From: Escherichia phage dhaeg
DNA length: 64,000 bases
Direction: 5' to 3' (one strand)
Sequence record: MN850609.1
Position numbers and translations under genes: made by a program. Position 1 is the stretch's first letter. Each line of letters begins with the position of its first letter. Positions 7,201 through 61,538 of this stretch are shown here, one piece after another. The notes under the pieces are model-generated. The model was not told the origin of the DNA. It saw nothing but the letters and a program-made list of their open reading frames with translations, and did not search any database.

Positions 7201-8227
7201 AAATACCATTAGCCATGAAATCAATAACACCATCGCGGACCCATTTAATACCGGTATCGTTATCGCCAATTGCAATACCAATAGAAATGGCGGAATCTAA
7301 AGGATAGCGTCCATTTGTACCGTTATCCGGAAGACCTACTGAAATAGATTTACCCGCAGTAATACGTCCAGAGTTATCAAACGCCCATTGGAAAGATGAA
7401 GGACCTACACCAGTCCACCAAGAAATTTCTTGTGGTTTACCTTTGCGACAATCAGCAATTTCATGGAAAATACTTGATGCACTTGATGCACGCAATTTAC
7501 GCAAATAGTTTAAACCGTTAGTAGTATCATCAGAGCCATCAGCAGGTGGATTATAAACCCAGGTAGGTAATGAAACCCAATCATACCCGATGTTGGCGTT
7601 AGCTACAAATGTTTTTGTACTGAAATTAATATTTTTGGTAACAATTTCAGGACCGGTGATAATACCATTAGCTGAATTTATGTTTCCTGATGCAGAAATA
7701 TTACCTGCTGATACCATTAAACTACCGCTATCAACTTGAAAATTACCATTACGATTAAAGGTCCAATATTTTGAATCACCTGTTTCATTAATATAGTGGA
7801 ATTTAAAACTGCCTTCGTTTACTAATGTACCTGCTGAAAAAGTACCGTCTTTATAACGTTGCTTAATCAAAGGGTGGTATTCTGAAACAGAAGTAGTTGA
7901 ACTCAAATCTGTAAAGATAGGGGCTTTATTCAGATGTTGGTTAGCCCAGGCGCCGTTGCCAGCTGTTTTAGGCAGGAATTCGATGTATTTACCTGCATAA
8001 ACATATTGGTTGCCATTGAGGTTAAATGTCCCGTTTTGAAGAACATCCCCATCAATGGTCCCACCCTTTGCAAAGCCTAAATCAATAATCTGACCTTGGT
8101 CTGACTTAGTAAAAATAGTGCGATCACGCAAGTTAATAGCCAGTTCACCTTCATCTAACTGGGCTGCAGTAGGCTTGGCTCCTGCTATTTTACTTCTTTT
8201 AAATTGTATCGATTTTAAAGTAGCCAT
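4253..8227 (-). CDS. 37: long tail fibre distal subunit gp37
   Basis: 1324 aa; position between gp36 and gp38; Gly/Asn/Thr/Ser-rich fibrous composition; size fits T2-type gp37. Confidence 0.85.
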   Translation of the reverse strand: MATLKSIQFKRSKIAGAKPTAAQLDEGELAINLRDRTIFTKSDQGQIIDLGFAKGGTIDGDVLQNGTFNLNGNQYVYAGKYIEFLPKTAGNGAWANQHLNKAPIFTDLSSTTSVSEYHPLIKQRYKDGTFSAGTLVNEGSFKFHYINETGDSKYWTFNRNGNFQVDSGSLMVSAGNISASGNINSANGIITGPEIVTKNINFSTKTFVANANIGYDWVSLPTWVYNPPADGSDDTTNGLNYLRKLRASSASSIFHEIADCRKGKPQEISWWTGVGPSSFQWAFDNSGRITAGKSISVGLPDNGTNGRYPLDSAISIGIAIGDNDTGIKWVRDGVIDFMANGISSATILNNGINSTKKLMVGYSRDSGTTWDFPNNNQAMFTARTDVDDNNNGDGQTHIGYSSNAKMYHYFRGQGRMSVSMGDGLLVEPGILDVKTGSNRVAIRADGTFDSTNRISMRTGLFLNGDDNTNALSFKAPSGVDGTKTINWDAGTRNGQNKNTVTIKAWGNSFNAGGGNRETVFEVSDSQGYYFYAQRTNPSVAGGVGPVNFKFNGTVETGHIVGLGDITASGKGSFGGGVTFENGAAIRGGANISGQVKIGGVNDALRIWNDRYGAIFRRSETSLHIIPTNENEGENGPISNLRPFSIELGTGAINIGHSLMIGNSARGDGLLNIDTKAFLITINSHSKINPNYRMDLENGAYINALMDANGRSAGAGSFASQNNENVRAPFYMNIDRDDTSTYVPMIKQRYVQGNGCFSIGTLLNNGNFRVHYHAGGDGGSTGAQIADYGWEFTKSGDFVSPKRVSAGGSVYLGTDGNITGGSGNFSNLNTTLDRKVTTGWINYSSASGWYKLATVNMPQGVATVQFKITGGSGFNVGIFKQATINEIVLRSGNNTPKGINGVLWQRETDAIKDIAYVNTSGDEYDVYINCGTYLNRLTLEYSTSENASVVVHGLYGPTQSPVEELPVDTVKGRVFKLLNNSSDVFDAGSSNISTNATFVANTTVGFRHKSNGDESGSAATLFYNDGTTFHILLTDKNTDTDKTKASGSNNSLRPFSINIASGKVTISNSMSVSGVAEFYNGLNLKNNGSINFDKSGANPRNMCIFHAGDASRGNRIEIADESNYIVYFEKTPGGANRSSYNQCEVNGITTLNVNTKINTPQIGAFGVNTTNAWGGNSIAIGDNDTGFRQVGDGLLEVWTNAARRMRFQGGDTYSDMNINAPNVYIRSDIRLKSNFKPIENALEKVEQLDGLIYDKADYIGGEVVHTEAGVIAQKLNDVLPEAIREVEDIKGNKVLTVSTQAQVALLIEAVKTLSAKVKELEAKLN

Positions 8228-8235
8228 AATGCCTC

Positions 8236-8895
8236 TTAATAATATCCAAAATCTTCAGATGTACCTCTAAGAACAACCTGGTCAATACGAGGAACGTGTT
8301 CGTTCAATGTACCTGGGTTCCTAGATATAAAATTCGGGGCTGAAAGAACACCAGCCATAGATTGTATGTTACTATTATTTATTTGGACCTGTTTTGCGTT
8401 ATCTACATCACTTAATCCAACCTGGGCTTTAGTAGGGGTGTTACCAGGTGAAAATACTCGACCGGATTCATCTTTAATCTGACGGCCAAGAATATCGCCC
8501 ATTACGGTAAGACGGTTAGCTCCTACTGTAGTGCTAGGGTCAAAGATTACAAATGGCGTCCCATCTGCTGTTTCAAGTCCCATACCTTTACTCATTCTAA
8601 ATGAGAAAGAATACGTAGACGACATTGGAGTAGTATTGGTTTTTCTACCTAATTTAACCCAATAACCATCCGAATCTTTAAATTGTAGGTCTTTATCAAA
8701 GTTTACAGTACCCAAATAATTCCCACCGTTGGCTTTAGAAACAAAGTCGTTATCTGCGGCTTGGGGCTTATTAAATTCGGTATAGATTTTGTAGGTTTTA
8801 TATAAAATATCATTTGATACCGGCGTCAGCGGAAAGTTACCTTGGTGCCATATAACGGAACCTCCAGCGGTTGAGCCTAATTTTAAATCAGCCAT
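8236..8895 (-). CDS. 36: long tail fibre distal connector gp36
   Basis: 219 aa (T4 gp36 about 221 aa); synteny 34-35-36-37. Confidence 0.8.
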   Translation of the reverse strand: MADLKLGSTAGGSVIWHQGNFPLTPVSNDILYKTYKIYTEFNKPQAADNDFVSKANGGNYLGTVNFDKDLQFKDSDGYWVKLGRKTNTTPMSSTYSFSFRMSKGMGLETADGTPFVIFDPSTTVGANRLTVMGDILGRQIKDESGRVFSPGNTPTKAQVGLSDVDNAKQVQINNSNIQSMAGVLSAPNFISRNPGTLNEHVPRIDQVVLRGTSEDFGYY

Positions 8896-52726: not shown

Positions 52727-52748
52727 TATAAATATAATTATATTTATA
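52727..52748. promoter_or_regulatory. divergent late promoters: TATAAATA (+, inh) and TATTTATA (= TATAAATA on -, uvsW)
   Basis: tataaata at 52727-52734 on plus; tatttata at 52741-52748. Confidence 0.5.
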
Positions 52749-52767
52749 CACCAACAAGAGACTAATT

Positions 52768-53439
52768 ATGGATACTCAATATATTGAAGAGCTTCGTGCA
52801 CTCGAAGATAAAAAAGAAGCTAAAGCTAAGTTAATCGAATACGGCGAACAATTCGGTTTGAAACTTAAGAAAACCCGTTCGTTTGATAATTTGATTATCG
52901 ATATCTCTGAAGGCCTTAAAGCCCTGGCTGATGAACCACTTCCAGAAACCGAAGGTTTGTCTATTTCTGATTTGATTGATGCCGCCGACGAACTCACAGG
53001 CGCTAACGAATTTGTTGATGGTGCCGAACCCGCCAAAGAAGAGGCTACCCTATTATTTGATGCCCCTGAAGCGGTAGTTGAAGTTATTGAGGTAGCCGAA
53101 CTTCCTAAGGTAGAGATTATTGAAGAAGACGTCCCGTTTGTCGAAGAGAAATTCAAAGAGGCTGTGGCCGAGGTTATTGAATCTGAAAAACCTGTATTCT
53201 CTTTACCTGAAAACTTTAGCCCTAATCTTTTACTCATTGGTAAAAACCCAGGGTATTGTACTGTGCCTTGGTGGATTTATCAATGGATTACCGAAACCCC
53301 TGATTGGAAAGAACGCCCTAAAGATTTCCAACACCCATCTGCCCACCAAACACTATTCAGTCTGATTTATTACATCAATCGTAATGGTTCAGTATTAGTA
53401 CGTGAAACGCGTAATTCATCTTTCGTAACTTTAAAATAA
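52768..53439 (+). CDS. inh: putative Inh (prohead protease inhibitor) by position
   Basis: 223 aa acidic protein between uvsW and hoc (T4 Inh about 226 aa). Confidence 0.55.
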   Translation: MDTQYIEELRALEDKKEAKAKLIEYGEQFGLKLKKTRSFDNLIIDISEGLKALADEPLPETEGLSISDLIDAADELTGANEFVDGAEPAKEEATLLFDAPEAVVEVIEVAELPKVEIIEEDVPFVEEKFKEAVAEVIESEKPVFSLPENFSPNLLLIGKNPGYCTVPWWIYQWITETPDWKERPKDFQHPSAHQTLFSLIYYINRNGSVLVRETRNSSFVTLK

Positions 53440-53448
53440 GGGTAAAAT

Positions 53449-54861
53449 ATGGCTTTTACTGTAAGTATAGCCGGCACAGCGTCTATTAAAATAGGCGAAA
53501 GTGCTAACTACACTGCTACCGCAACAGGTGCAGCTGTAGAAGGAACCATTACATATGTATGGTCTATTGATGGTGCTTCTAATCCAGAAGCAACCAATGT
53601 TTTGAAATATACAGGTGCTGCACCTGTAGGTAAGAAAGTTTTAAAAGTAGTAGCAACTTCTACTCCGGCTGAAGGCGAACCTGAGGTAGCTGAAGATACT
53701 TTTGAAGTTACCGTAGCTAATAAGACCATGTCTATTTCTTTGGCTTTGGACCCTATTTCTGTTTCTAAAGAAGTTGGCCAATCTCAAGTTGTTACTGCTA
53801 ACGTGACGGGTGCACCTGCAGGTGCAACAATTGCTTATGTTTGGAAACGTAACACCAGCGTAATCTCTGGCCAAACTGGTAAAACTATTACTGTAACCGA
53901 AGCCGCGGAAGCAAATTACACGTTGAACTGTGAAGTTACTGTTACCGCCCCTGAATATAACCCGGGTACCGCTACTAAAGGTGCTGCGGTAACTTTTGTT
54001 AAGAAAACTATATCAGGTGTTTCTGTTACTTTAACACCGGCCTCAATTAGTACAGAGAAAGACTCATCTGCACAGTTTAAAGCGGATGTAGTCGGCGCTC
54101 CTTCCGGCGTAAATGCAACTTATTCTTGGAAGAAAAACGGTTCTATTATTCCGGGCGAAAGCAGTAATACTCTTGCTGTTGATACGTCTACAATAGGTTC
54201 TTACTCTATTGAAGTTTCGGTACTCCTAAAAGGTACGGATTATAATGATTTAACCGTTACCAAAACAGGAAGTGTAACAATTACTAAAAAGACTATGGCA
54301 GGTGTTTCTGTTAATTTAACGCCTGCTTCTATTACTGTCTCTGAAGGAATCCCGGCTTCTTTTAAAGCCACGGTAGTCGGTGCGCCTAGTGGTGCTACTT
54401 TTGCTTATTCTTGGAAGAAAGATGGTTCACCTGTTGTGGGTGCTACGGATACATTAGTAATTGACACAAGCGCTGAAGGTTCACAGGTTATTGAAGTTTC
54501 TGTTGTGGTTTCGGCTACCGACTATAATTCTGTGACCGTCACAAAATCCGGTAATGTAACAATTACGGCTAAAGTCGCTCCTGAACCAGAGGGCGAACTA
54601 CCTTACGTTCATCCGCTACCAGTTCGTAATTCAGCTTATATTTGGTGTGGTTGGTGGGTTATGGACGAAATTCAGAAAATGACCCTTGAAGGCAAAGACT
54701 GGAAAACTGACGAACCTGATAGTGAATATTATCTCCATCGTTATACCCTTCAAAAAATGGTAGCCGATTATCCTGAGGTTGATGTACAGGAATCTCGTAA
54801 TGGTAGAATTATTCACAGAACCGCTTTGGATGCTGGAATTATTTACGATTACGTTTATTAA
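53449..54861 (+). CDS. hoc: Hoc highly antigenic outer capsid protein, four Ig-like repeats + capsid-binding C-terminus
   Basis: 470 aa; C-terminus PEPEGELPYVHPLP...AYIWCGWWVMDEIQKMT.EGKDWKTD.PDS.YYLHRYTLQKM..DYPEVDVQESRNG.IIH.TAL matches T4 Hoc; four tandem ~90-aa Ig-like repeats. Confidence 0.92.
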   Translation: MAFTVSIAGTASIKIGESANYTATATGAAVEGTITYVWSIDGASNPEATNVLKYTGAAPVGKKVLKVVATSTPAEGEPEVAEDTFEVTVANKTMSISLALDPISVSKEVGQSQVVTANVTGAPAGATIAYVWKRNTSVISGQTGKTITVTEAAEANYTLNCEVTVTAPEYNPGTATKGAAVTFVKKTISGVSVTLTPASISTEKDSSAQFKADVVGAPSGVNATYSWKKNGSIIPGESSNTLAVDTSTIGSYSIEVSVLLKGTDYNDLTVTKTGSVTITKKTMAGVSVNLTPASITVSEGIPASFKATVVGAPSGATFAYSWKKDGSPVVGATDTLVIDTSAEGSQVIEVSVVVSATDYNSVTVTKSGNVTITAKVAPEPEGELPYVHPLPVRNSAYIWCGWWVMDEIQKMTLEGKDWKTDEPDSEYYLHRYTLQKMVADYPEVDVQESRNGRIIHRTALDAGIIYDYVY

Positions 54862-54864
54862 TAA

Positions 54865-54886
54865 AGGGCCGCAAGGCCCTTATTTA
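54865..54886 (+). terminator. terminator after hoc
   Basis: agggcc-gcaa-ggccct + TATTT (weak T-run). Confidence 0.45.
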
Positions 54887-54946
54887 GTTTATGATAATGT
54901 TTCGGGAGATTAAGTTATTGACGAATAATTTTTAATAGGTGGATAT

Positions 54947-55126
54947 ATGAAATTTAACAAAGATATAGGGTTGTTGGTTTTCTTTATAGTGCTGTTTTTG
55001 TTTTCGTTAATTTCATTAACTAGTGGGTTGTTTGCTTCTATATTGGCTCTTTTCACATGCATTAGTTCCTTTTTTGGGATAATAGCTACTATAGATAAAA
55101 TTTTACATACCAAAAAGGGCCCGTAG
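54947..55126 (+). CDS. small hydrophobic ORF (59 aa, predicted membrane peptide)
   Basis: MKFNKDIGLLVFFIVLFLFSLISLTSGLFASILALFTCISSFFGIIA...; sits between convergent terminators; weak SD. Confidence 0.3.
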   Translation: MKFNKDIGLLVFFIVLFLFSLISLTSGLFASILALFTCISSFFGIIATIDKILHTKKGP

Positions 55127-55140
55127 GCCCTTTATTATTT
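55114..55140. terminator. bidirectional terminator
   Basis: aaagggcc-cgta-ggcccttt with T-runs on both strands. Confidence 0.6.
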
Positions 55141-56001
55141 TTCAGGAGGGACGTAAACTAAGTCTTTCCTTTCTAAGATGTAGCCATTTCTCGACTCTTG
55201 TATCTCTACTTCAGGATACTTAGACAAAAGGTCGGCTACTTTTTGTAACTCACATTTATACTTGTATGGGCTGTTGTTTATATCCAAAGTCCAATCTTCT
55301 CCCAATCTAACGGCTTCTCTTATTTCGTCCCATACCCACCAACCTATCCACATATACGATTCATTTCTTCCACCGCCATAGGGTAAATAAGCATTAAGGT
55401 CGTTATCATATATGAAAGGGCACTGCAATACATCATCCCTAGGTTTTATTTCAACTAAAAGTTCTTCAGAAGCAGGGATATATGCTCCTTCGCAGGTCGC
55501 TATAGATTTTAATGTATAATCTCCAAATTTATCAGGGTCGTCTATTAATATATCAATATCTTCGTCTTTAGATAATTCTACTCCATCTCTATACCATCTA
55601 CAAATTCTTTCGGCATAAGTGGGTTCCACTCTACACGACGGGCGAAGTGAAACTGTTTCTCCTATATTGGCATATATTAATTCCCTAGAGTTTATATCTA
55701 GGACTATTCTTCTTGGAAGGGTACCTATTTCAAGTTCTATTTCGTTACTCTTTGTTATTTCACCACTTTTCTTATTTGTTATGGTCGCATAAAATGTTCC
55801 TGCCGCCGGGAATCCTACTTCCCATAAATTTAATTCAAAAGGGTCTTCGGTAGGAAGTTGTGGAATATGGACATCGTTTTTATACCAATTAATTTCTACG
55901 TCATCTAGAGTAGAACCGGGTGGTAATACAAACCCGGTATAAAAGGTTACTGTCCTGCCAACCAATTCATATCTAGGACCATTTATTTTAAGTACAATCA
56001 T
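55135..56001 (-). CDS. Hoc-like protein (Ig-like N-terminal domains + Hoc-type capsid-binding C-terminal domain)
   Basis: 288 aa; C-terminus YMWIGWWVWDEIREAVRLGEDWTLD...YKYKCELQKVADLLSKYPEVEIQESRNGYILERKDL aligns with Hoc C-terminus. Confidence 0.7.
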   Translation of the reverse strand: MIVLKINGPRYELVGRTVTFYTGFVLPPGSTLDDVEINWYKNDVHIPQLPTEDPFELNLWEVGFPAAGTFYATITNKKSGEITKSNEIELEIGTLPRRIVLDINSRELIYANIGETVSLRPSCRVEPTYAERICRWYRDGVELSKDEDIDILIDDPDKFGDYTLKSIATCEGAYIPASEELLVEIKPRDDVLQCPFIYDNDLNAYLPYGGGRNESYMWIGWWVWDEIREAVRLGEDWTLDINNSPYKYKCELQKVADLLSKYPEVEIQESRNGYILERKDLVYVPPEK

Positions 56002-56010
56002 TTAACCTCC

Positions 56011-57516
56011 TTAAAACGTGCTCATATTGGTATGGTCTTCGACAGAAAATAAAACTTCAACAGGGATATCTGTAGTCGTATTAAGAGGGCCGCCTACAAT
56101 AAACACAGATACAGTGTAGTATTTTCTAGTATCACGGTCAAATATTTCGTAACGGTTAAATTGTCTTGCACTAGAATAAGCCAAATCGTCGAATAATTCA
56201 GGAGATGATGACCACAACACATTACTCCAGTTGGCACATTCTATTCCGTTTTCATAGTTGGTAAATCTTTTAATATCAAGCCTATTAGTAAGACCTGCAT
56301 TAGTAGCCCTTATATGGATGCCTACAGATGAGTACATGCGAACATGAAGAACCATATTAAGGTCCCACAAACGTATTTCCTTCCACTCTGAAGTGTTCAG
56401 AGGCTTATCAAATCTTAAAGAGCCTTTCCAATATCTAGGTGGATAGAATGGGAAAAGTTTATCATATAAAGATTTTAATTGAGACTGGGTTAAAGAATCG
56501 ACATCAAATACTGCATCTTTGCCTGGCGCACCTGCAGGACCTATAGGACCTTGAATACCTTGTGGCCCGGGTTCACCCTTTTCACCTTTAGGACCTGGGT
56601 CGCCTTGCGGTCCTTGGGCACCTTGCTCTCCAGGTGCACCATCTTCTCCGGGATTTCCTGGACGCCCTTCTTTTACAAATAAATTCCAATAATCGGCCCA
56701 CAGGTCTCCACTCCCAGGATAACTATCATTATTTGCTATATTATCCTGGATACAAATCCAAGAAGACCCTTCGCACTGGACCAAATCGTTTATATAATAA
56801 GACGAACCAAGGGCCCAGTTTCCGGCCCAGATAAACCCATTACCATCTTGGCCTGGCGCGCCTTGTGGACCTTGAGGGCCGGTTGGGCCTGTTGGTCCTT
56901 GAGGACCTGGTGCACCGATATTAGCCAATAGTGCCCAAACTCCTTCGCTAGGAGGTATTGTTCCTGTATTAGAACTGATGCAAAAATAAGAAGCTCCCTG
57001 GTATCCAACTGCATCGTCTTTAGAGTATTGGGTAGATTCATCCCAGGCTCCCTTCCACACCAAACCTGCCGGGCCTATAGGACCTTGTGGTCCTTGCGGT
57101 CCTACTTCTCCTTGGGCCCCTTGTAAACCCTGAGGGCCTTCTTTTCCTGGTGAACCCGGGTCTCCTTTAGGACCTTCTGGACCTGCTGGTCCTGGTTCGC
57201 CCTTTTCTCCTTTAGGACCGGGGTTACCTTGAATACCTTGCGGCCCTGGGTCTCCTTTAGGGCCTTGTGGACCTTCAGTACCAGGTGTTAGCATCTCATT
57301 AGTTATACCTAAATGGGCCAACGCGCCTTCCCTAGAAGCTTGTTTTATAAATTCAAGTCCATAGCTTTGAGAAGAATCTAGCATAGTAGGGTCTAAGGTG
57401 CTTTCACTAGTGAGTATGTCCACAAATTCCAATGATTTGTTCTGTGGAACTTCTACTAATGATACGCCTCTAAAGTGGCCTCTACCATCATGCCCGTATA
57501 ATGGATTGTCTGACAT
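56011..57516 (-). CDS. collagen-like triple-helix repeat protein
   Basis: 501 aa; three blocks of G-x-y repeats rich in Pro/Gln/Lys/Glu ([49 protein letters not shown]...), interspersed with repeated W.G.W...Y..D.V...G.S..CI globular segments. Confidence 0.75.
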
Positions 57517-57526
57517 AAAATCTCCT

Positions 57527-57556
57527 GTTTACAAGTTAAAATTCTCATGTTACTAT
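57527..57556 (+). promoter_or_regulatory. early promoter (GTTTAC, 18 nt, TACTAT)
   Basis: gtttac 57527-57532; tactat 57551-57556. Confidence 0.5.
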
Positions 57557-57585
57557 TGAATAGTTCAAATCACAAGAGAACTGTT

Positions 57586-57798
57586 ATGGATAAGATTAAA
57601 GTACATTTTTTACATGAATCGGGTATGAATTTTATTGATATTGCTAAAAAGATTGGCGGAACTGCCAGAGATATGGCTAAAGCCTGGGCCGAAGTTGAGA
57701 ATGCTAAGGCCAAGTTTAAAGCAAAAGAGAAAGTTGTGTATCGTAAAAGATTAAACAACAAAAAGGTCAGCGCAAAGCGCGTTTTTGGTCTAAAGTAA
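57586..57798 (+). CDS. small basic protein with possible helix-turn-helix (70 aa)
   Basis: MDKIKVHFLHESGMNFIDIAKKIGGTARDMAKAW... then Lys/Arg-rich tail. Confidence 0.4.
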   Translation: MDKIKVHFLHESGMNFIDIAKKIGGTARDMAKAWAEVENAKAKFKAKEKVVYRKRLNNKKVSAKRVFGLK

Positions 57799-57912
57799 TA
57801 TGCTTTAAATTTAGGTGTGTTATAATGGGTCTAGGTCCTTCCGTTAAACCATTTGGCTTGGTGACAGAAGATTACTAGCTCTTCTATTTAATTATATTTA
57901 TTATGGTGATTT

Positions 57913-58920
57913 ATGTTCAAGAAATATAGCAGTCTGGAAAACCACTACAACAGTAAGTTTATCGAAAAACTCCGTACCAATGGTTTGACTGGTGGTGAAT
58001 GGGTAGCACGTGAGAAGATTCATGGAACCAACTTTAGTTTAATCATAGAACGTGACGCAGTCACATGCGCCAAGCGCACTGGCCCAATTCTCCCTGCTGA
58101 AGATTTCTATGGTTATGAAATTGTACTTAAGAACTACGCTGATTCTATTAAATCTATACAAGATATTATGGAAACTTCAGCAGCCGTATCTTATCAAGTT
58201 TTCGGTGAATTCGCTGGAACAGGCATTCAGAAGAACGTTGATTACGGTGATAAAGATTTTTATGTATTTGACATTATTGTTACCACCGAAAGCGGCGATG
58301 TGACTTATGTCGACGATTATATGATGGAATCATTTTGTAAGACGTTCAAATTTAAAATGGCACCACTTTTAGGTCGTGGTAAATTTGAAGACCTTATTAA
58401 ATTGCCAAATGATTTAGATTCCGTCCTTCCTGATTATAATTTTACAGTAGATAATGTCGGGCTAGCCGAAGCTAATGCTCATGTGTGGAATGCCGAAGCA
58501 AAAGGCGAAGTATTTACCGCTGAAGGGTACGTATTAAAACCTTGTTATCCGCTTTGGCTGCCTAATGGAAATCGTGTAGCAATTAAATGCAAGAACTCTA
58601 AATTCAGCGAGAAGAAAAAAACTGATAAGCCTATTAAAGTTGCAGTAGTATTATCCCAAGACGATTTAGATTTATTACAACAATTCACAGATTATGTGAC
58701 TGTTAACCGTATTAACAACGTTATCAGTAAGATTGGTGAAGTATCACCTAAAGATTTTGGAAAGGTAATGGGACTGACGGTCCAAGATATTTTGGAAGAG
58801 GCAGCCCGCGAAGAATTAGAATTAACCGATGCAGAAAACCCTGTTGAAGTTAAAAAGCAGCTTATTGAGTGCGTTAAAGATACGCTACGAGCTGTATGGA
58901 TTGAATTAGTATCCAAATAA
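57913..58920 (+). CDS. rnlB: RNA ligase 2
   Basis: 335 aa; near-colinear with T4 Rnl2 ([65 protein letters not shown]). Confidence 0.97.
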
Positions 58921-58926
58921 ACAATA

Positions 58927-58955
58927 AAGGGACCTTACGGTCCCTTTTATTTTTC
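58927..58955 (+). terminator. terminator after rnlB
   Basis: aagggacc-ttac-ggtccctt + TTATTTTT. Confidence 0.6.
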
Positions 58956-60227
58956 TAGTGGTGGAAGTTTAACACCGAGATAAGAACTCAACTGGCTTTG
59001 GTTAGCCATTTTGTCCATATCAGAACCATCAATAATGCGGGCTTCTTTATCGTCCTTAGCGACGGTATAAGGGTTTGCAGTCAATGCATAACGAGCAAGC
59101 AATGCTACTGTAGGTTGTAAGCTTTCTGGGTCAACAATAACCTTAAATTCACCTACTGAAGTATCACCTTCTTCATCAACCACATCCAAACCTTCCGTAT
59201 AAGGCGCATAATATAAAGATGCGACCGTCTGTCCTTCACCCATCTGAGCATTTACACCAACAATAACATAATCACATGGACTATTCATATCGGCATAAAG
59301 AGGTAGACCATTCTTTAATACACCATAAGCCAATTCATCTTGGTCTTCCTTTTTCTCAACCCAACCGGATGCAGCGAGAATAGCAGCACAACGAGAACTA
59401 GCTACGGCATAAGTCCCAGCGAAAGAAGTTTGACGTTGGACGGCAGAGTTCATCTCACACATGTAATAATATAATGTACGAGCACGGTCCTGGGCATTAT
59501 CATAACGTGGGTTAGTAAGGTCCAATACGCCCTTTTCAGAAACACCCTGGACTTTAAAACGAGAACTCACTGTAATTAATGACTGTAATACGTCCTTATT
59601 AATTTCTTCTGCCATTTGAATGCCTAGCAGATTTTCAATGAAATTAGGAGCATTAAACCCGTTTGATTCTAGGTCTTGGGCTAATTCGACTGTCAATGAA
59701 GTTTTCAGTTTACGTGATTTAACTTCAGATTGCCATTTGTCAATACGGAAGCCTGCTTCAGCAATTTCAGGATGGCCTTGTTCGAATTTAGAAGTAATAG
59801 CAGCATCTGATACCATACGAATATGCCCAGCGGCCACTGCTTCAGAAATAACTTCACCGAGGTCGGTTTCCGTGGTTCCGGCGAAAGGAGATGCTTCTAG
59901 AACTTTAAACACTACACTTTCAAACTGGAACATATCGCCGGCTGCATAAGCTGTAGACGAATCGGTAAATTCAGGAATATTTTCACGTTCCGACATACCA
60001 ATCTGGCCTGCAAATGTAGCGCCACCAAGATAAGTCATTTTGTCGTCAGGGTTAAGTACACGAACCCCGTACAGAGCAGCAACAGGTTGGCTTGTTTTTT
60101 GTTCAGCAACTAGGGCTTTAAAGATTCGTTTATTAGTTGCTTGGGTGTATGAAAGAAGAGCAGGACGGCCAACCGAGTTGGCAGCCGTCAATGTGGATTC
60201 TTTAATTAGGTCTATAATCTTAGACAT
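58947..60227 (-). CDS. gp24-like capsid vertex protein, divergent paralog
   Basis: 426 aa; same domain order as gp24/gp23 fold (..RK.LKT..TVELAQDLE.NGF.AP.F.E.LL...M..EINKD.LQSLITVS.R.KV.GVS..G..DLT) but about half identical to the adjacent copy. Confidence 0.8.
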   Translation of the reverse strand: MSKIIDLIKESTLTAANSVGRPALLSYTQATNKRIFKALVAEQKTSQPVAALYGVRVLNPDDKMTYLGGATFAGQIGMSERENIPEFTDSSTAYAAGDMFQFESVVFKVLEASPFAGTTETDLGEVISEAVAAGHIRMVSDAAITSKFEQGHPEIAEAGFRIDKWQSEVKSRKLKTSLTVELAQDLESNGFNAPNFIENLLGIQMAEEINKDVLQSLITVSSRFKVQGVSEKGVLDLTNPRYDNAQDRARTLYYYMCEMNSAVQRQTSFAGTYAVASSRCAAILAASGWVEKKEDQDELAYGVLKNGLPLYADMNSPCDYVIVGVNAQMGEGQTVASLYYAPYTEGLDVVDEEGDTSVGEFKVIVDPESLQPTVALLARYALTANPYTVAKDDKEARIIDGSDMDKMANQSQLSSYLGVKLPPLEK

Positions 60228-61510
60228 TAATCAGCCTCGTAAATAATTGCTGGAAGTTTAACACCAAGCAGATAAGACATATTACTCTGACCAGCCATTA
60301 AATCCATATTGGTTGCATCGATAACACGAGCTTCTTTATCGTCTTTAGCTACGGTGTACGGGTTAGCGGACAGTGCATAACGAACCATCAGAGAAATAGA
60401 AGGCTGTAATGAATCCGGGTCGACAATAACCTTATAAGCACCAACGTGTTCTTGGTCGTCTAAATCCAGGCCTTCTGTATATGGGGCATAGAAAATAGAA
60501 CCGACAACTTCATTACCACCATAGTTCTCTTTAACACCTACGATAACATAATCCAATGGGCTGTTAACGTCACAGAACAGAGGTAATCCATTCAACAAAT
60601 AACCATAGGCCGTTTCTGGGAGCCAATTATTATCTTCAGGTCTATGTTTTAACCAGCCAGAACCTGCAAGCATTGCAGCCACACGACTTGAAGCCACAAC
60701 AAACGTACCCGAATAAGAAGTAGTTTTCTGGATTTCAGAATTCATCTCACAAACAATTTCATAAAGTTTACGTGCAGATTCTGGAGCACTATCATAAGTC
60801 AAATCGATGATGCCATTATCAGATACACCCGTAACTTTATAGCGTTTGGATACGGTTATTAGAGATTGCAGAACATCTTTATTAATTTCATCTGCCATTA
60901 CTGTAGCCAGGAGGTCTTCTAAGAATGCAGGGGCGTCGAAGCCATTTGATTCCATATCCTGTGCTAATTCTACGGTCAAAGCAGTCTTCAATTTACGGGT
61001 CTTAACAGGGGCATTCCATTTATTAACCTGGAATACAGCATCAGAGATTTCTACATCACTCTCTTCAAATTTAGTGGTATGGGCTGCATCAGGAACCAAA
61101 CGACACGTTAATGACACCAAACCTTCTTGAAGAGCATCGGCCAATTCTGTAGCGCTAGTGGATGCGAGTGGGCTTGCTTGAAGAGCCTTATAAACCACAT
61201 TCTGATACTTAAAGTAGTCACCCTTGGCAATCGCCTGGGCTTTATCTGTGAGTTCCGGGATAGTTTCACGGTCTTTAGAACCAACTTCACCACCATAAAC
61301 TGCACCGGTTTGGAAACTGAATTCATTATCAGGGGTAAGATATTTGACACCATACAACGCAGCGATAGGTTGGTTTGTACGTTGTTCAGCGATGATATCG
61401 CGATAAATTAGTTTAGTGGTAGCACGGGTCAAAGCAACAAGATTAGGGCGACCCAATGAGTTGCTGGTAGTAGTTGTTGACTCGCGCAGTAATTCGTTAA
61501 TCTTTGCCAT
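60227..61510 (-). CDS. 24: gp24 capsid vertex protein
   Basis: 427 aa, same as T4 gp24; MAKINELLRESTTT.SNS.GRPNLVALTRATTKLIY.DI.A.QRTNQP.AA.YG.KYL.PDNEF. Confidence 0.92.
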   Translation of the reverse strand: MAKINELLRESTTTTSNSLGRPNLVALTRATTKLIYRDIIAEQRTNQPIAALYGVKYLTPDNEFSFQTGAVYGGEVGSKDRETIPELTDKAQAIAKGDYFKYQNVVYKALQASPLASTSATELADALQEGLVSLTCRLVPDAAHTTKFEESDVEISDAVFQVNKWNAPVKTRKLKTALTVELAQDMESNGFDAPAFLEDLLATVMADEINKDVLQSLITVSKRYKVTGVSDNGIIDLTYDSAPESARKLYEIVCEMNSEIQKTTSYSGTFVVASSRVAAMLAGSGWLKHRPEDNNWLPETAYGYLLNGLPLFCDVNSPLDYVIVGVKENYGGNEVVGSIFYAPYTEGLDLDDQEHVGAYKVIVDPDSLQPSISLMVRYALSANPYTVAKDDKEARVIDATNMDLMAGQSNMSYLLGVKLPAIIYEAD

Positions 61511-61538
61511 TGCGCTTTCCTTATTGAGGGTATATGTT

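Follow-up and report, generated by a model that had tools for sequence, protein, structure and literature searches.

For display on phage T4, Hoc serves as the standard platform; it is also the model for 'phage adherence to mucus', and its natural role is debated. No Hoc has, to our knowledge, been described as an adaptor for another protein. Here, we analyse a two-gene cassette of Escherichia phage dhaeg (sequence record MN850609.1; the window is the whole stretch analysed, 64,000 nucleotides long), which encodes a collagen-like fibre protein of 501 amino acids (aa) and, downstream of it, a second Hoc-like protein of 288 aa, called Hoc2 below. In all 18 full-length fibre genes with readable flanks, from several lineages of Straboviridae, an open reading frame (ORF) with a Hoc C-terminal domain adjoins the fibre gene on the same strand. 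The genes are known at the level of annotation, and this linkage is the new point. From comparative genomics, on which our hypothesis of a Hoc-anchored fibre rests, we propose, with confidence and doubt in about equal measure, that the Hoc paralogue anchors a trimeric collagen fibre on the capsid, and that this fibre is a reversible adhesin by means of its CBM_5_12 modules and its tip.

Hoc, pb10, gp12 of SPP1 and gp8.5 of phi29 are all thought to mediate adhesion to surfaces (PMC7602432). In SPP1, gp12 is a collagen-like trimer at the hexon centres (Zairi et al. 2014, cited in PMC7602432). It thereby resembles the proposed fibre, as a collagen-like trimer on the capsid of a tailed phage that is thought to be adhesive. 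However, gp12 has 64 aa and binds the shell directly, whereas the fibre described here has 501 aa, CBM_5_12 modules, a globular tip and a Hoc partner, and no homology between the two was detectable. In phi29, the gp8.5 trimer is a dispensable head fibre, which docks on an immunoglobulin (Ig)-like BIG2 insertion of the coat protein and aids the ordered attachment to the cell wall (PMC7602432). Here too there are differences: gp8.5 consists of a beta-tulip base and a helical spike, contains no collagen, and docks on an Ig domain that belongs to the coat protein and not to a separate decoration protein.

Short second Hocs have been noted for the phages Muldoon and PG7 (Fokine et al. 2023, PMC10385173). 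A second hoc next to a collagen gene can also be found in existing annotations. In Aeromonas phage 65, the label 'hoc-2, second copy of the hoc gene' stands beside a 'tail fiber protein similar to collagen-like proteins', and the annotations of JS10 and IME08 are alike, with a second hoc and a 'tail fiber-like' collagen gene. The pair is therefore less new than the original prediction, made from the sequence of the window, would suggest. In our literature search, which covered neither the JS98 nor the JS10 papers, we found no description of an obligate pairing, of a first Ig-like domain (D1) specific for phages with the fibre, or of a Hoc-anchored fibre. The papers on IT22, AhFM11 and the isolation of dhabil, as well as Petrov 2010, mention neither Hoc nor collagen, as judged by a search for these terms.

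The linkage was scored on all ORFs of the loci, with profiles of the N-terminal domain of the fibre (N-domain) and of Hoc's C-terminal domain, within phage records and several metagenomic contigs. Eleven of the 18 fibre genes came from phage records (dhabil, JS10, CGG4-1, Phynn, Cronus/IT22, FBB1, Aeromonas phage 65, GomatiRiver_11/AhFM11, AS4, TH15 and ABTNLsp5), and seven from metagenomic loci (L007 with two tandem cassettes, L008, L010, L023, L024 and L025). In these comparisons "dhabil" stands for the cassette type of the window. Over the 3.1 kb around the cassette, identity is 99.9% with Escherichia phage dhabil (MN850621; Dhakavirus, Straboviridae) and 98% with CLB_P2 and Ec2-ASingh, and the fibre protein is 99.8-100% identical to its dhabil counterpart, dhabil_240. 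The gap between the fibre and Hoc2 genes is usually 0-10 nt, or the two overlap. The cassette lies between hoc and 24.3 in dhabil and CGG4-1, directly after gp24 in Cronus, FBB1 and L024, near tk in Aeromonas phage 65 and L023, and among early genes in Phynn; the gene order is reversed in L010. Within Dhakavirus the cassette is patchy, JS98 and most relatives being without it, and the window type resembles the cassette of CGG4-1, a Gelderlandvirus of Salmonella, more closely than that of JS10. Therefore, the fibre-Hoc2 pair moves as a module, which T4-like phages exchange horizontally as an accessory unit of two genes.

The association extends to single domains. By tblastn, D1 was found in 22 of 50,697 phage records. 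Without exception these records carry the fibre N-domain too, which was recognised by tblastn in 20 of them and by hidden Markov model in the two from IME08. Hoc-like C-terminal domains occur in about 1,209 phage records. The N-domain itself gave 25 matches in the same 50,697 records (tblastn), at one place per record.

Cassettes in decay show patterns that fit a fibre-Hoc2 unit. In IME08, the adjacent fibre gene is a 24-codon remnant (L002 5962-6036), still coupled to hoc2 by the identical GGAGGTTAA junction. In Pseudomonas phage PspYZU05 (L020 4989-5653), one deletion joins the end of the N-domain, with an in-frame stop, to the middle of the second Ig-like domain (D2) of Hoc2, and in Aeromonas phage AP1 an N-domain stub is all that is left of the cassette. 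The leftover 132-aa Hoc-like ORF of PspYZU05 is the only Hoc-like ORF of its 10-kb locus. IME08 has a second fibre gene after gp24b, 1.5 kb away (L002 7475-8880), with a frameshift after the N-domain; the reading frame of the N-domain ORF (8668-8880) differs from that of the coding sequence (CDS) annotated as 'tail fiber' (7475-8662). Pseudogene formation, misreading of a T-run in sequencing or a frameshift may lie behind this.

Two metagenomic T4-like contigs have unusual arrangements. L007 (6001-10970) contains tandem cassettes, encoding 488 + 278 aa and 586 + 286 aa with differing fibre tips, which are followed by a convergent main Hoc of >800 aa. On L024 (1-8272), 9 nt separate gp24 from the start of the fibre gene within the 21-22-23-24 head operon, and with the fibre comes a cassette-type Hoc, the only Hoc near inh; a T4-type main Hoc is missing there. 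From L024, the cassette-type Hoc may be the sole Hoc in some phages.

The 288-aa protein is, judged by its homology, a Hoc paralogue, as its C-terminus had led the original prediction to suppose. This C-terminus matches the window's own Hoc with 46% identity over 71 aa (BLASTP, E 8e-18) and residues 297-365 of T4 Hoc (5vf3_Z), out of a capsid-binding domain of residues 281-376, with E 1.6e-14 (phmmer against PDB), and Hoc2 aligns over aa 35-282 with phrog_1149, 'Hoc-like head decoration' (6e-43). The residues with which T4 Hoc's C-terminal domain contacts all six gp23 subunits have been listed by Fokine et al. 2023 (PMC10385173). Of the contact and loop residues in that list, 13 of 16 are identical in Hoc2 in the alignment with 5vf3_Z, namely R212, Y216, W218, W221, W222 and D225 (T4 R300, Y304, W306, W309, W310 and D313) and Q268-ESRNG-Y274 with the loop E269-S-R-N-G273 (T4 Q354, E355-S-R-N-G359 and Y360). 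In place of T4 H299 stands Gly, and the stretch with Y293 and H295 could not be aligned with confidence. We infer that Hoc2 may bind the hexamer centre like Hoc, sharing it or competing with the 470-aa main Hoc, which is a likely competitor for the same capsid site.

The Ig-like sequence predicted to precede the Hoc C-terminus was recovered as well. The match of the window's Hoc2 to Pfam Ig_2 is sub-threshold (E 0.0068), while 7 of 15 orthologues match Ig_2, I-set or Ig_3 (best E 4.7e-7), and the phrog_1149 alignment spans this part. Like T4 Hoc (PDB 5VF3 chain Z, 8T1X), Hoc2 has a C-terminal domain with the WW, R300/D313 and ESRNG features after Ig-like domains. It differs in having two Ig domains only, and in a C-terminal domain from a separate 'KYKCE/RFKYPC' clade, without the C-terminal IIYDYVY tail. 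Furthermore, the Ig domains of ordinary Hoc are noted for their variability (PMC10385173), whereas the first Ig domain of Hoc2 is conserved across subfamilies and is found only with a partner fibre gene. Among Hoc2 orthologues, the mean pairwise identity is 0.38 for D1, 0.29 for D2 and 0.53 for the C-terminal domain. Invariant residues are present in D1 (G8, P9, W39, L59, A66 and G68) and absent from D2. Short forms of Hoc2, of 166 and 195 aa, have kept D1 and the C-terminal domain and lost D2, which is absent in Cronus and L010. Hoc2 is acidic, with an isoelectric point of 4.5.

The 501-aa protein has the layout of a trimeric collagen-type fibre. The three Gly-x-y blocks seen in the original prediction are uninterrupted repeats of 25 + 9 + 17 = 51 triplets (Pfam Collagen, PF01391, 8.6e-24) and match collagen chains in PDB. 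The W.G.W...Y..D.V segments between them proved equally real and are CBM_5_12 modules, recognised by PF02839 in two stretches (1.9e-9; 37.8 bits against a cut-off of 26.2), which makes them putative carbohydrate binders. At the collagen rise of 0.286 nm per residue, the 153 triple-helical residues would span ~44 nm. A short conserved helix forms the neck, and the C-terminal domain has ~140 aa. For the beta-sandwich of the tip no solved relative was found, and the C-terminal domain did not prove to be a C1q/TNF jelly-roll trimerisation domain. In general design, with a collagen stalk, a short helical neck and a globular head, the protein is comparable to collectins, C1q and BclA. The fold of the tip (BFVD model matches) recurs in collagen-like proteins of the E. 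coli siphophages vB_EcoS-BECP10 and vB_EcoS_AHP42; therefore, the collagen-plus-tip module also occurs outside the T4-like phages.

The N-domain is the constant part of the fibre. Its residues G8, H9, G11, G13, G17 and I71 are invariant in 19 homologues, and the ~25 cluster representatives with this domain among 1.84 billion proteins have it always at the extreme N-terminus. Shaft length and tip type vary while the N-domain is kept: JS10, L010 and P0011 have other tips, and Phynn has no collagen. Searched alone, the N-domain had no match in PDB, Pfam or PHROGs, and a scan of IMG/VR with an N-domain pattern returned CGG4-1 and Cronus again and nothing further. Its AlphaFold2 monomer model is poor, with a predicted local distance difference test (pLDDT) score of 65 and a predicted template modelling (pTM) score of 0.35. 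For a beta-tulip base like that of phi29 gp8.5 there was no sequence match in PDB, and the model is too poor for a comparison of folds.

The pairwise distances of the N-domain correlate best with those of D1 (r 0.69, Mantel p 2e-4). With the Hoc2 C-terminal domain r is 0.41, and with the tip of the fibre itself it is 0.42, even though on the DNA this tip separates the N-domain from D1. Conservation and co-variation together form the pattern expected of an N-domain/D1 interface, without being proof of it. Somewhat more tentatively than for the anchoring itself, we suggest that Hoc2 is an adaptor, the conserved distal D1 of which captures the 'GHDGRG' domain of a swappable collagen fibre, making up a mobile plug-in head fibre.

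Table 1. The cassette, its domains and adjacent elements, by position in the window (domain borders are also given in aa of the protein).
Feature	Position	Strand	Remarks
Main hoc	53449..54861	+	470 aa; convergent neighbour of the cassette; late promoter TATAAATA upstream of inh-hoc
G+C-rich hairpin	55114..55133	both	directly 3' of the Hoc2 stop codon; terminator-like both ways
Hoc paralogue (Hoc2)	55135..56001	-	ORF of 288 aa; dhabil_241 'head outer capsid protein'; phrog_1149
Hoc2 C-terminal capsid-binding domain (putative)	55138..55377 (aa 209-288)	-	match to T4 Hoc 297-365
Hoc2 D2, Ig-like	55432..55722 (aa 94-190)	-	variable spacer
Hoc2 D1, Ig-like	55723..56001 (aa 1-93)	-	conserved, fibre-specific; proposed docking site for the fibre N-domain
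Junction GGAGGTTAA	56002..56010	-	Hoc2 ribosome-binding site, translational coupling
Fibre gene	56011..57516	-	ORF of 501 aa; dhabil counterpart dhabil_240, labelled 'hypothetical protein'; Pfam Collagen and CBM_5_12
Helical neck and C-terminal beta-sandwich tip	56014..56514 (aa 335-501)	-	
Collagen block 3	56515..56667 (aa 284-334)	-	17 triplets
CBM_5_12-like module 2	56668..56835 (aa 228-283)	-	PF02839; repeated motif W.G.W..Y..D.V..G.S..CI
Collagen block 2	56836..56916 (aa 201-227)	-	9 triplets
CBM_5_12-like module 1	56917..57057 (aa 154-200)	-	PF02839, best stretch aa 157-184
Collagen block 1	57058..57282 (aa 79-153)	-	25 G-x-y triplets
N-terminal 'GHDGRG' domain	57283..57516 (aa 1-78)	-	conserved part of the fibre; proposed virion/Hoc-docking domain
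Conserved upstream element TTTTAACTTGTAAACAGGAG	57522..57541	-	includes the fibre AGGAG ribosome-binding site; common to dhabil, IME08, JS10, L008 and TH15

The expression signals of the cassette differ between phages. In 5 of the 18 cassettes an exact late promoter TATAAATA stands 42-75 nt upstream, with a chance expectation of ~0.1 (an estimate from the window frequency and the number of positions). In TH15 and ABTNLsp5, TTGTAAACAG, which is also present in dhabil, is followed by TATAAATA and a leader, a segment that the dhabil group is without. Three further cassettes, in Cronus, FBB1 and L024, are those directly after gp24. The cassette family thus looks like a late, head-associated unit. 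In the window, the absence of a late promoter upstream of the operon, as first noted in the original prediction, is real: no TATAAATA occurs on either strand within 52749-61538, and the sites of the region stand upstream of inh-hoc, uvsW, gp24 and gp23. Two of them, 52727-52734 (+, inh-hoc) and 52741-52748 (-, uvsW), lie back to back in a 55-nt divergent intergenic region and make a near-palindrome.

Other possible signals around the window's cassette were considered. Late read-through from the gp24 promoter is unlikely, because a hairpin with a 9-bp stem and T-runs on both sides intervenes (58926-58947, between the convergent gp24b and rnlB and overlapping the gp24b stop), which looks like a strong bidirectional terminator ending the gp24 transcript. 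Neither a MotA-type middle promoter nor a variant late promoter was seen upstream of the cassette on reading the sequence. The conservation of a weak TTGT..N17..TAACAT pattern carries no information, since the pattern overlaps the ribosome-binding site of the divergent gene. The minus strand has a sigma70-like site at 57920..57891. Directly upstream of the fibre ribosome-binding site, the 17-nt TTTTAACTTGTAAACAG (57525-57541, minus strand) is present in dhabil, IME08, JS10, L008 and TH15, and Cronus has the related TGTAAACAAGGAG; this element could be the -10 region of a weak promoter, a leader or a regulator site.

If Hoc2 does anchor the fibre, its C-terminal domain would dock at the centres of the gp23 hexamers, and its distal D1 would hold the N-terminal domain of the fibre. 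The fibre would then stick out ~45-60 nm from the head, with ~44 nm for the collagen part alone. By its CBM_5_12 modules and its tip, it would adhere in a reversible way to polysaccharide surfaces, for example those of cell envelopes, mucus or particles, and this would raise encounter rates, as has been proposed for Hoc, the phi29 head fibres and SPP1 gp12. The original suggestion of a second decoration protein, with the collagen-like protein as a capsid- or virion-associated fibre, gains strength from our comparisons, because Hoc2 keeps the contact residues, the synteny holds in 18 of 18 cassettes, and relatives are late-promoted or lie in the head operon.

Several points weigh against a Hoc-anchored fibre. 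A trimer on a monomer is a stoichiometry that lacks an explanation; as a speculation, three Hoc2 from neighbouring hexamers might converge on one fibre. The 18 cassettes are a small sample and phylogenetically related, and synteny and co-variation are also expected of genes that are merely co-inherited. In IME08, Hoc2 persists though the adjacent fibre gene has been deleted, and the model of the N-domain is the poor one given above. The window-type cassette has no late promoter upstream, and the apparent terminator at 58926-58947 parts it from the gp24 late transcript. Our literature search found no virion proteomics, electron microscopy, binding or structural work on any cassette-bearing phage.

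Among the alternatives, the one that survives best, unlikely in our judgement but deserving a hearing, makes the collagen protein an accessory fibre of the tail, neck or baseplate and Hoc2 an independent head decoration, with the two genes mobilised together, as an 'adhesin' cassette, within a region that is hyperplastic. The whole fibre protein indeed matches phrog_5073, 'tail fiber protein' (1.8e-83), and many other tail-fibre PHROGs; collagen and CBM_5_12 occur together in prophage tail fibres with a T7-tail-fibre N-domain (P0039 and others); and the N-domain is, in its second half, similar to a repeat of large fibre proteins. However, the 'tail fiber' match rests on the collagen and CBM part, because the N-domain alone matches nothing in PDB, Pfam or PHROGs, and the N-domain, the tip and D1, each searched alone, match no PHROG. 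The tail fibres of PHROGs 5073, 819 and 366 and the Phage_T7_tail-collagen-CBM proteins (P0039) have the same shaft, with collagen blocks alternating with CBM_5_12, but the fibre described here has another N-terminal attachment domain and a gene in the head region beside hoc. In none of the cassettes was the fibre gene part of a tail module, the N-domain has no tail-attachment match, and the place beside a Hoc paralogue was constant. Furthermore, the N-domain exists in one copy per genome, hence it is not common to gp34, gp12 and wac, and D1 is found only where the fibre occurs.

A second alternative, to which we give slightly less weight still, lets both proteins decorate the capsid independently, with the fibre N-domain binding the shell directly, at quasi-3-fold sites or at hexon centres like SPP1 gp12. 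SPP1 gp12 and phi29 gp8.5 do bind capsids without an adaptor, and the symmetry of a collagen trimer suits 3-fold sites better than it suits a monomeric Hoc. Yet, independent binding leaves without explanation why D1 is conserved, why it is retained in the shortest Hoc2 and restricted to phages with the fibre, and why the divergence of the N-domain tracks best with that of D1. Last, it is improbable that the cassette in dhabil is not, or no longer, a virion component, being poorly expressed or early with a non-structural role: while it has no TATAAATA upstream, has the sigma70-like minus-strand site, lacks at the same position the promoter-plus-leader of TH15 and ABTNLsp5, and has readily decayed in IME08, PspYZU05 and AP1, both ORFs are intact with strong ribosome-binding sites, the proteins are 96.6-100% identical in aa among dhabil, CLB_P2 and Ec2-ASingh, and Hoc2 has kept its capsid-contact residues.

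At the locus itself, the coordinates of the minus-strand two-gene operon given in the original prediction were exact, as was its 9-nt junction: the fibre stop TAA is followed by GGAGGTTAA, which contains GGAGG, and then by the Hoc2 ATG. The operon is also convergent with hoc, as described (Table 1). On the left side lie uvsW (-), inh (+) and hoc (+), and on the right side a DUF2774/24.3 homologue (+, 57547..57798), rnlB (+) and two gp24 paralogues (-). T4 and the Dhakavirus type phage JS98 have the order inh-hoc-24.3-(24.2)-rnlB without a cassette. Because they have nothing at that point, the cassette is an insertion of ~2.7 kb, placed on the opposite strand between hoc and 24.3. The assignment to the segD/24.2/24.3 locus of T4 was right as to the neighbourhood of 24.3 and wrong as to segD, which is elsewhere, 24.3 itself being retained. 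The high G+C (0.50-0.53) at 56500-57500 is no sign of a foreign origin, as the Gly and Pro codons explain it.

Between the convergent hoc genes, a strongly hydrophobic ORF of 59 aa (MKFNKDIGLLVFFIVLFLFSLISL..., 54947-55126, +) without PHROG match has a G+C-rich hairpin on either side (54864-54881 and 55114-55133). MN850621 has no annotation for this ORF; instead, the record gives a CDS of doubtful standing, dhabil_242 (window 54800-54913), which overlaps the 3' end of hoc. The tandem paralogues of gp24, the vertex protein (58947-61510, -), have 426 and 427 aa, share one base between stop and start, and both match Pfam Gp23 at ~1e-97. The duplication is also present in JS98, JS10, IME08, CGG4-1 and Cronus and does not correlate with the fibre-Hoc cassette. 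A tie between the two was rejected, with JS98 having two gp24 without a cassette, and L007, L010 and L024 one gp24 with a cassette.

If the linkage is mere co-inheritance, the pair amounts to one more accessory cassette of a region already known as hyperplastic. If Hoc2 does carry the fibre, Hoc-type anchors would serve in nature as mounts for other proteins on the capsid. Hoc2 would then be the first capsid decoration protein into which a second, exchangeable virion protein plugs, the tips of which would diversify like those of tail fibres, and the pair would offer a natural two-component display system for engineering. The gut-studied phage CLB_P2 has the same cassette. In therapeutic coliphages, exchangeable adhesins borne on the capsid would be a second layer of host and environment targeting.

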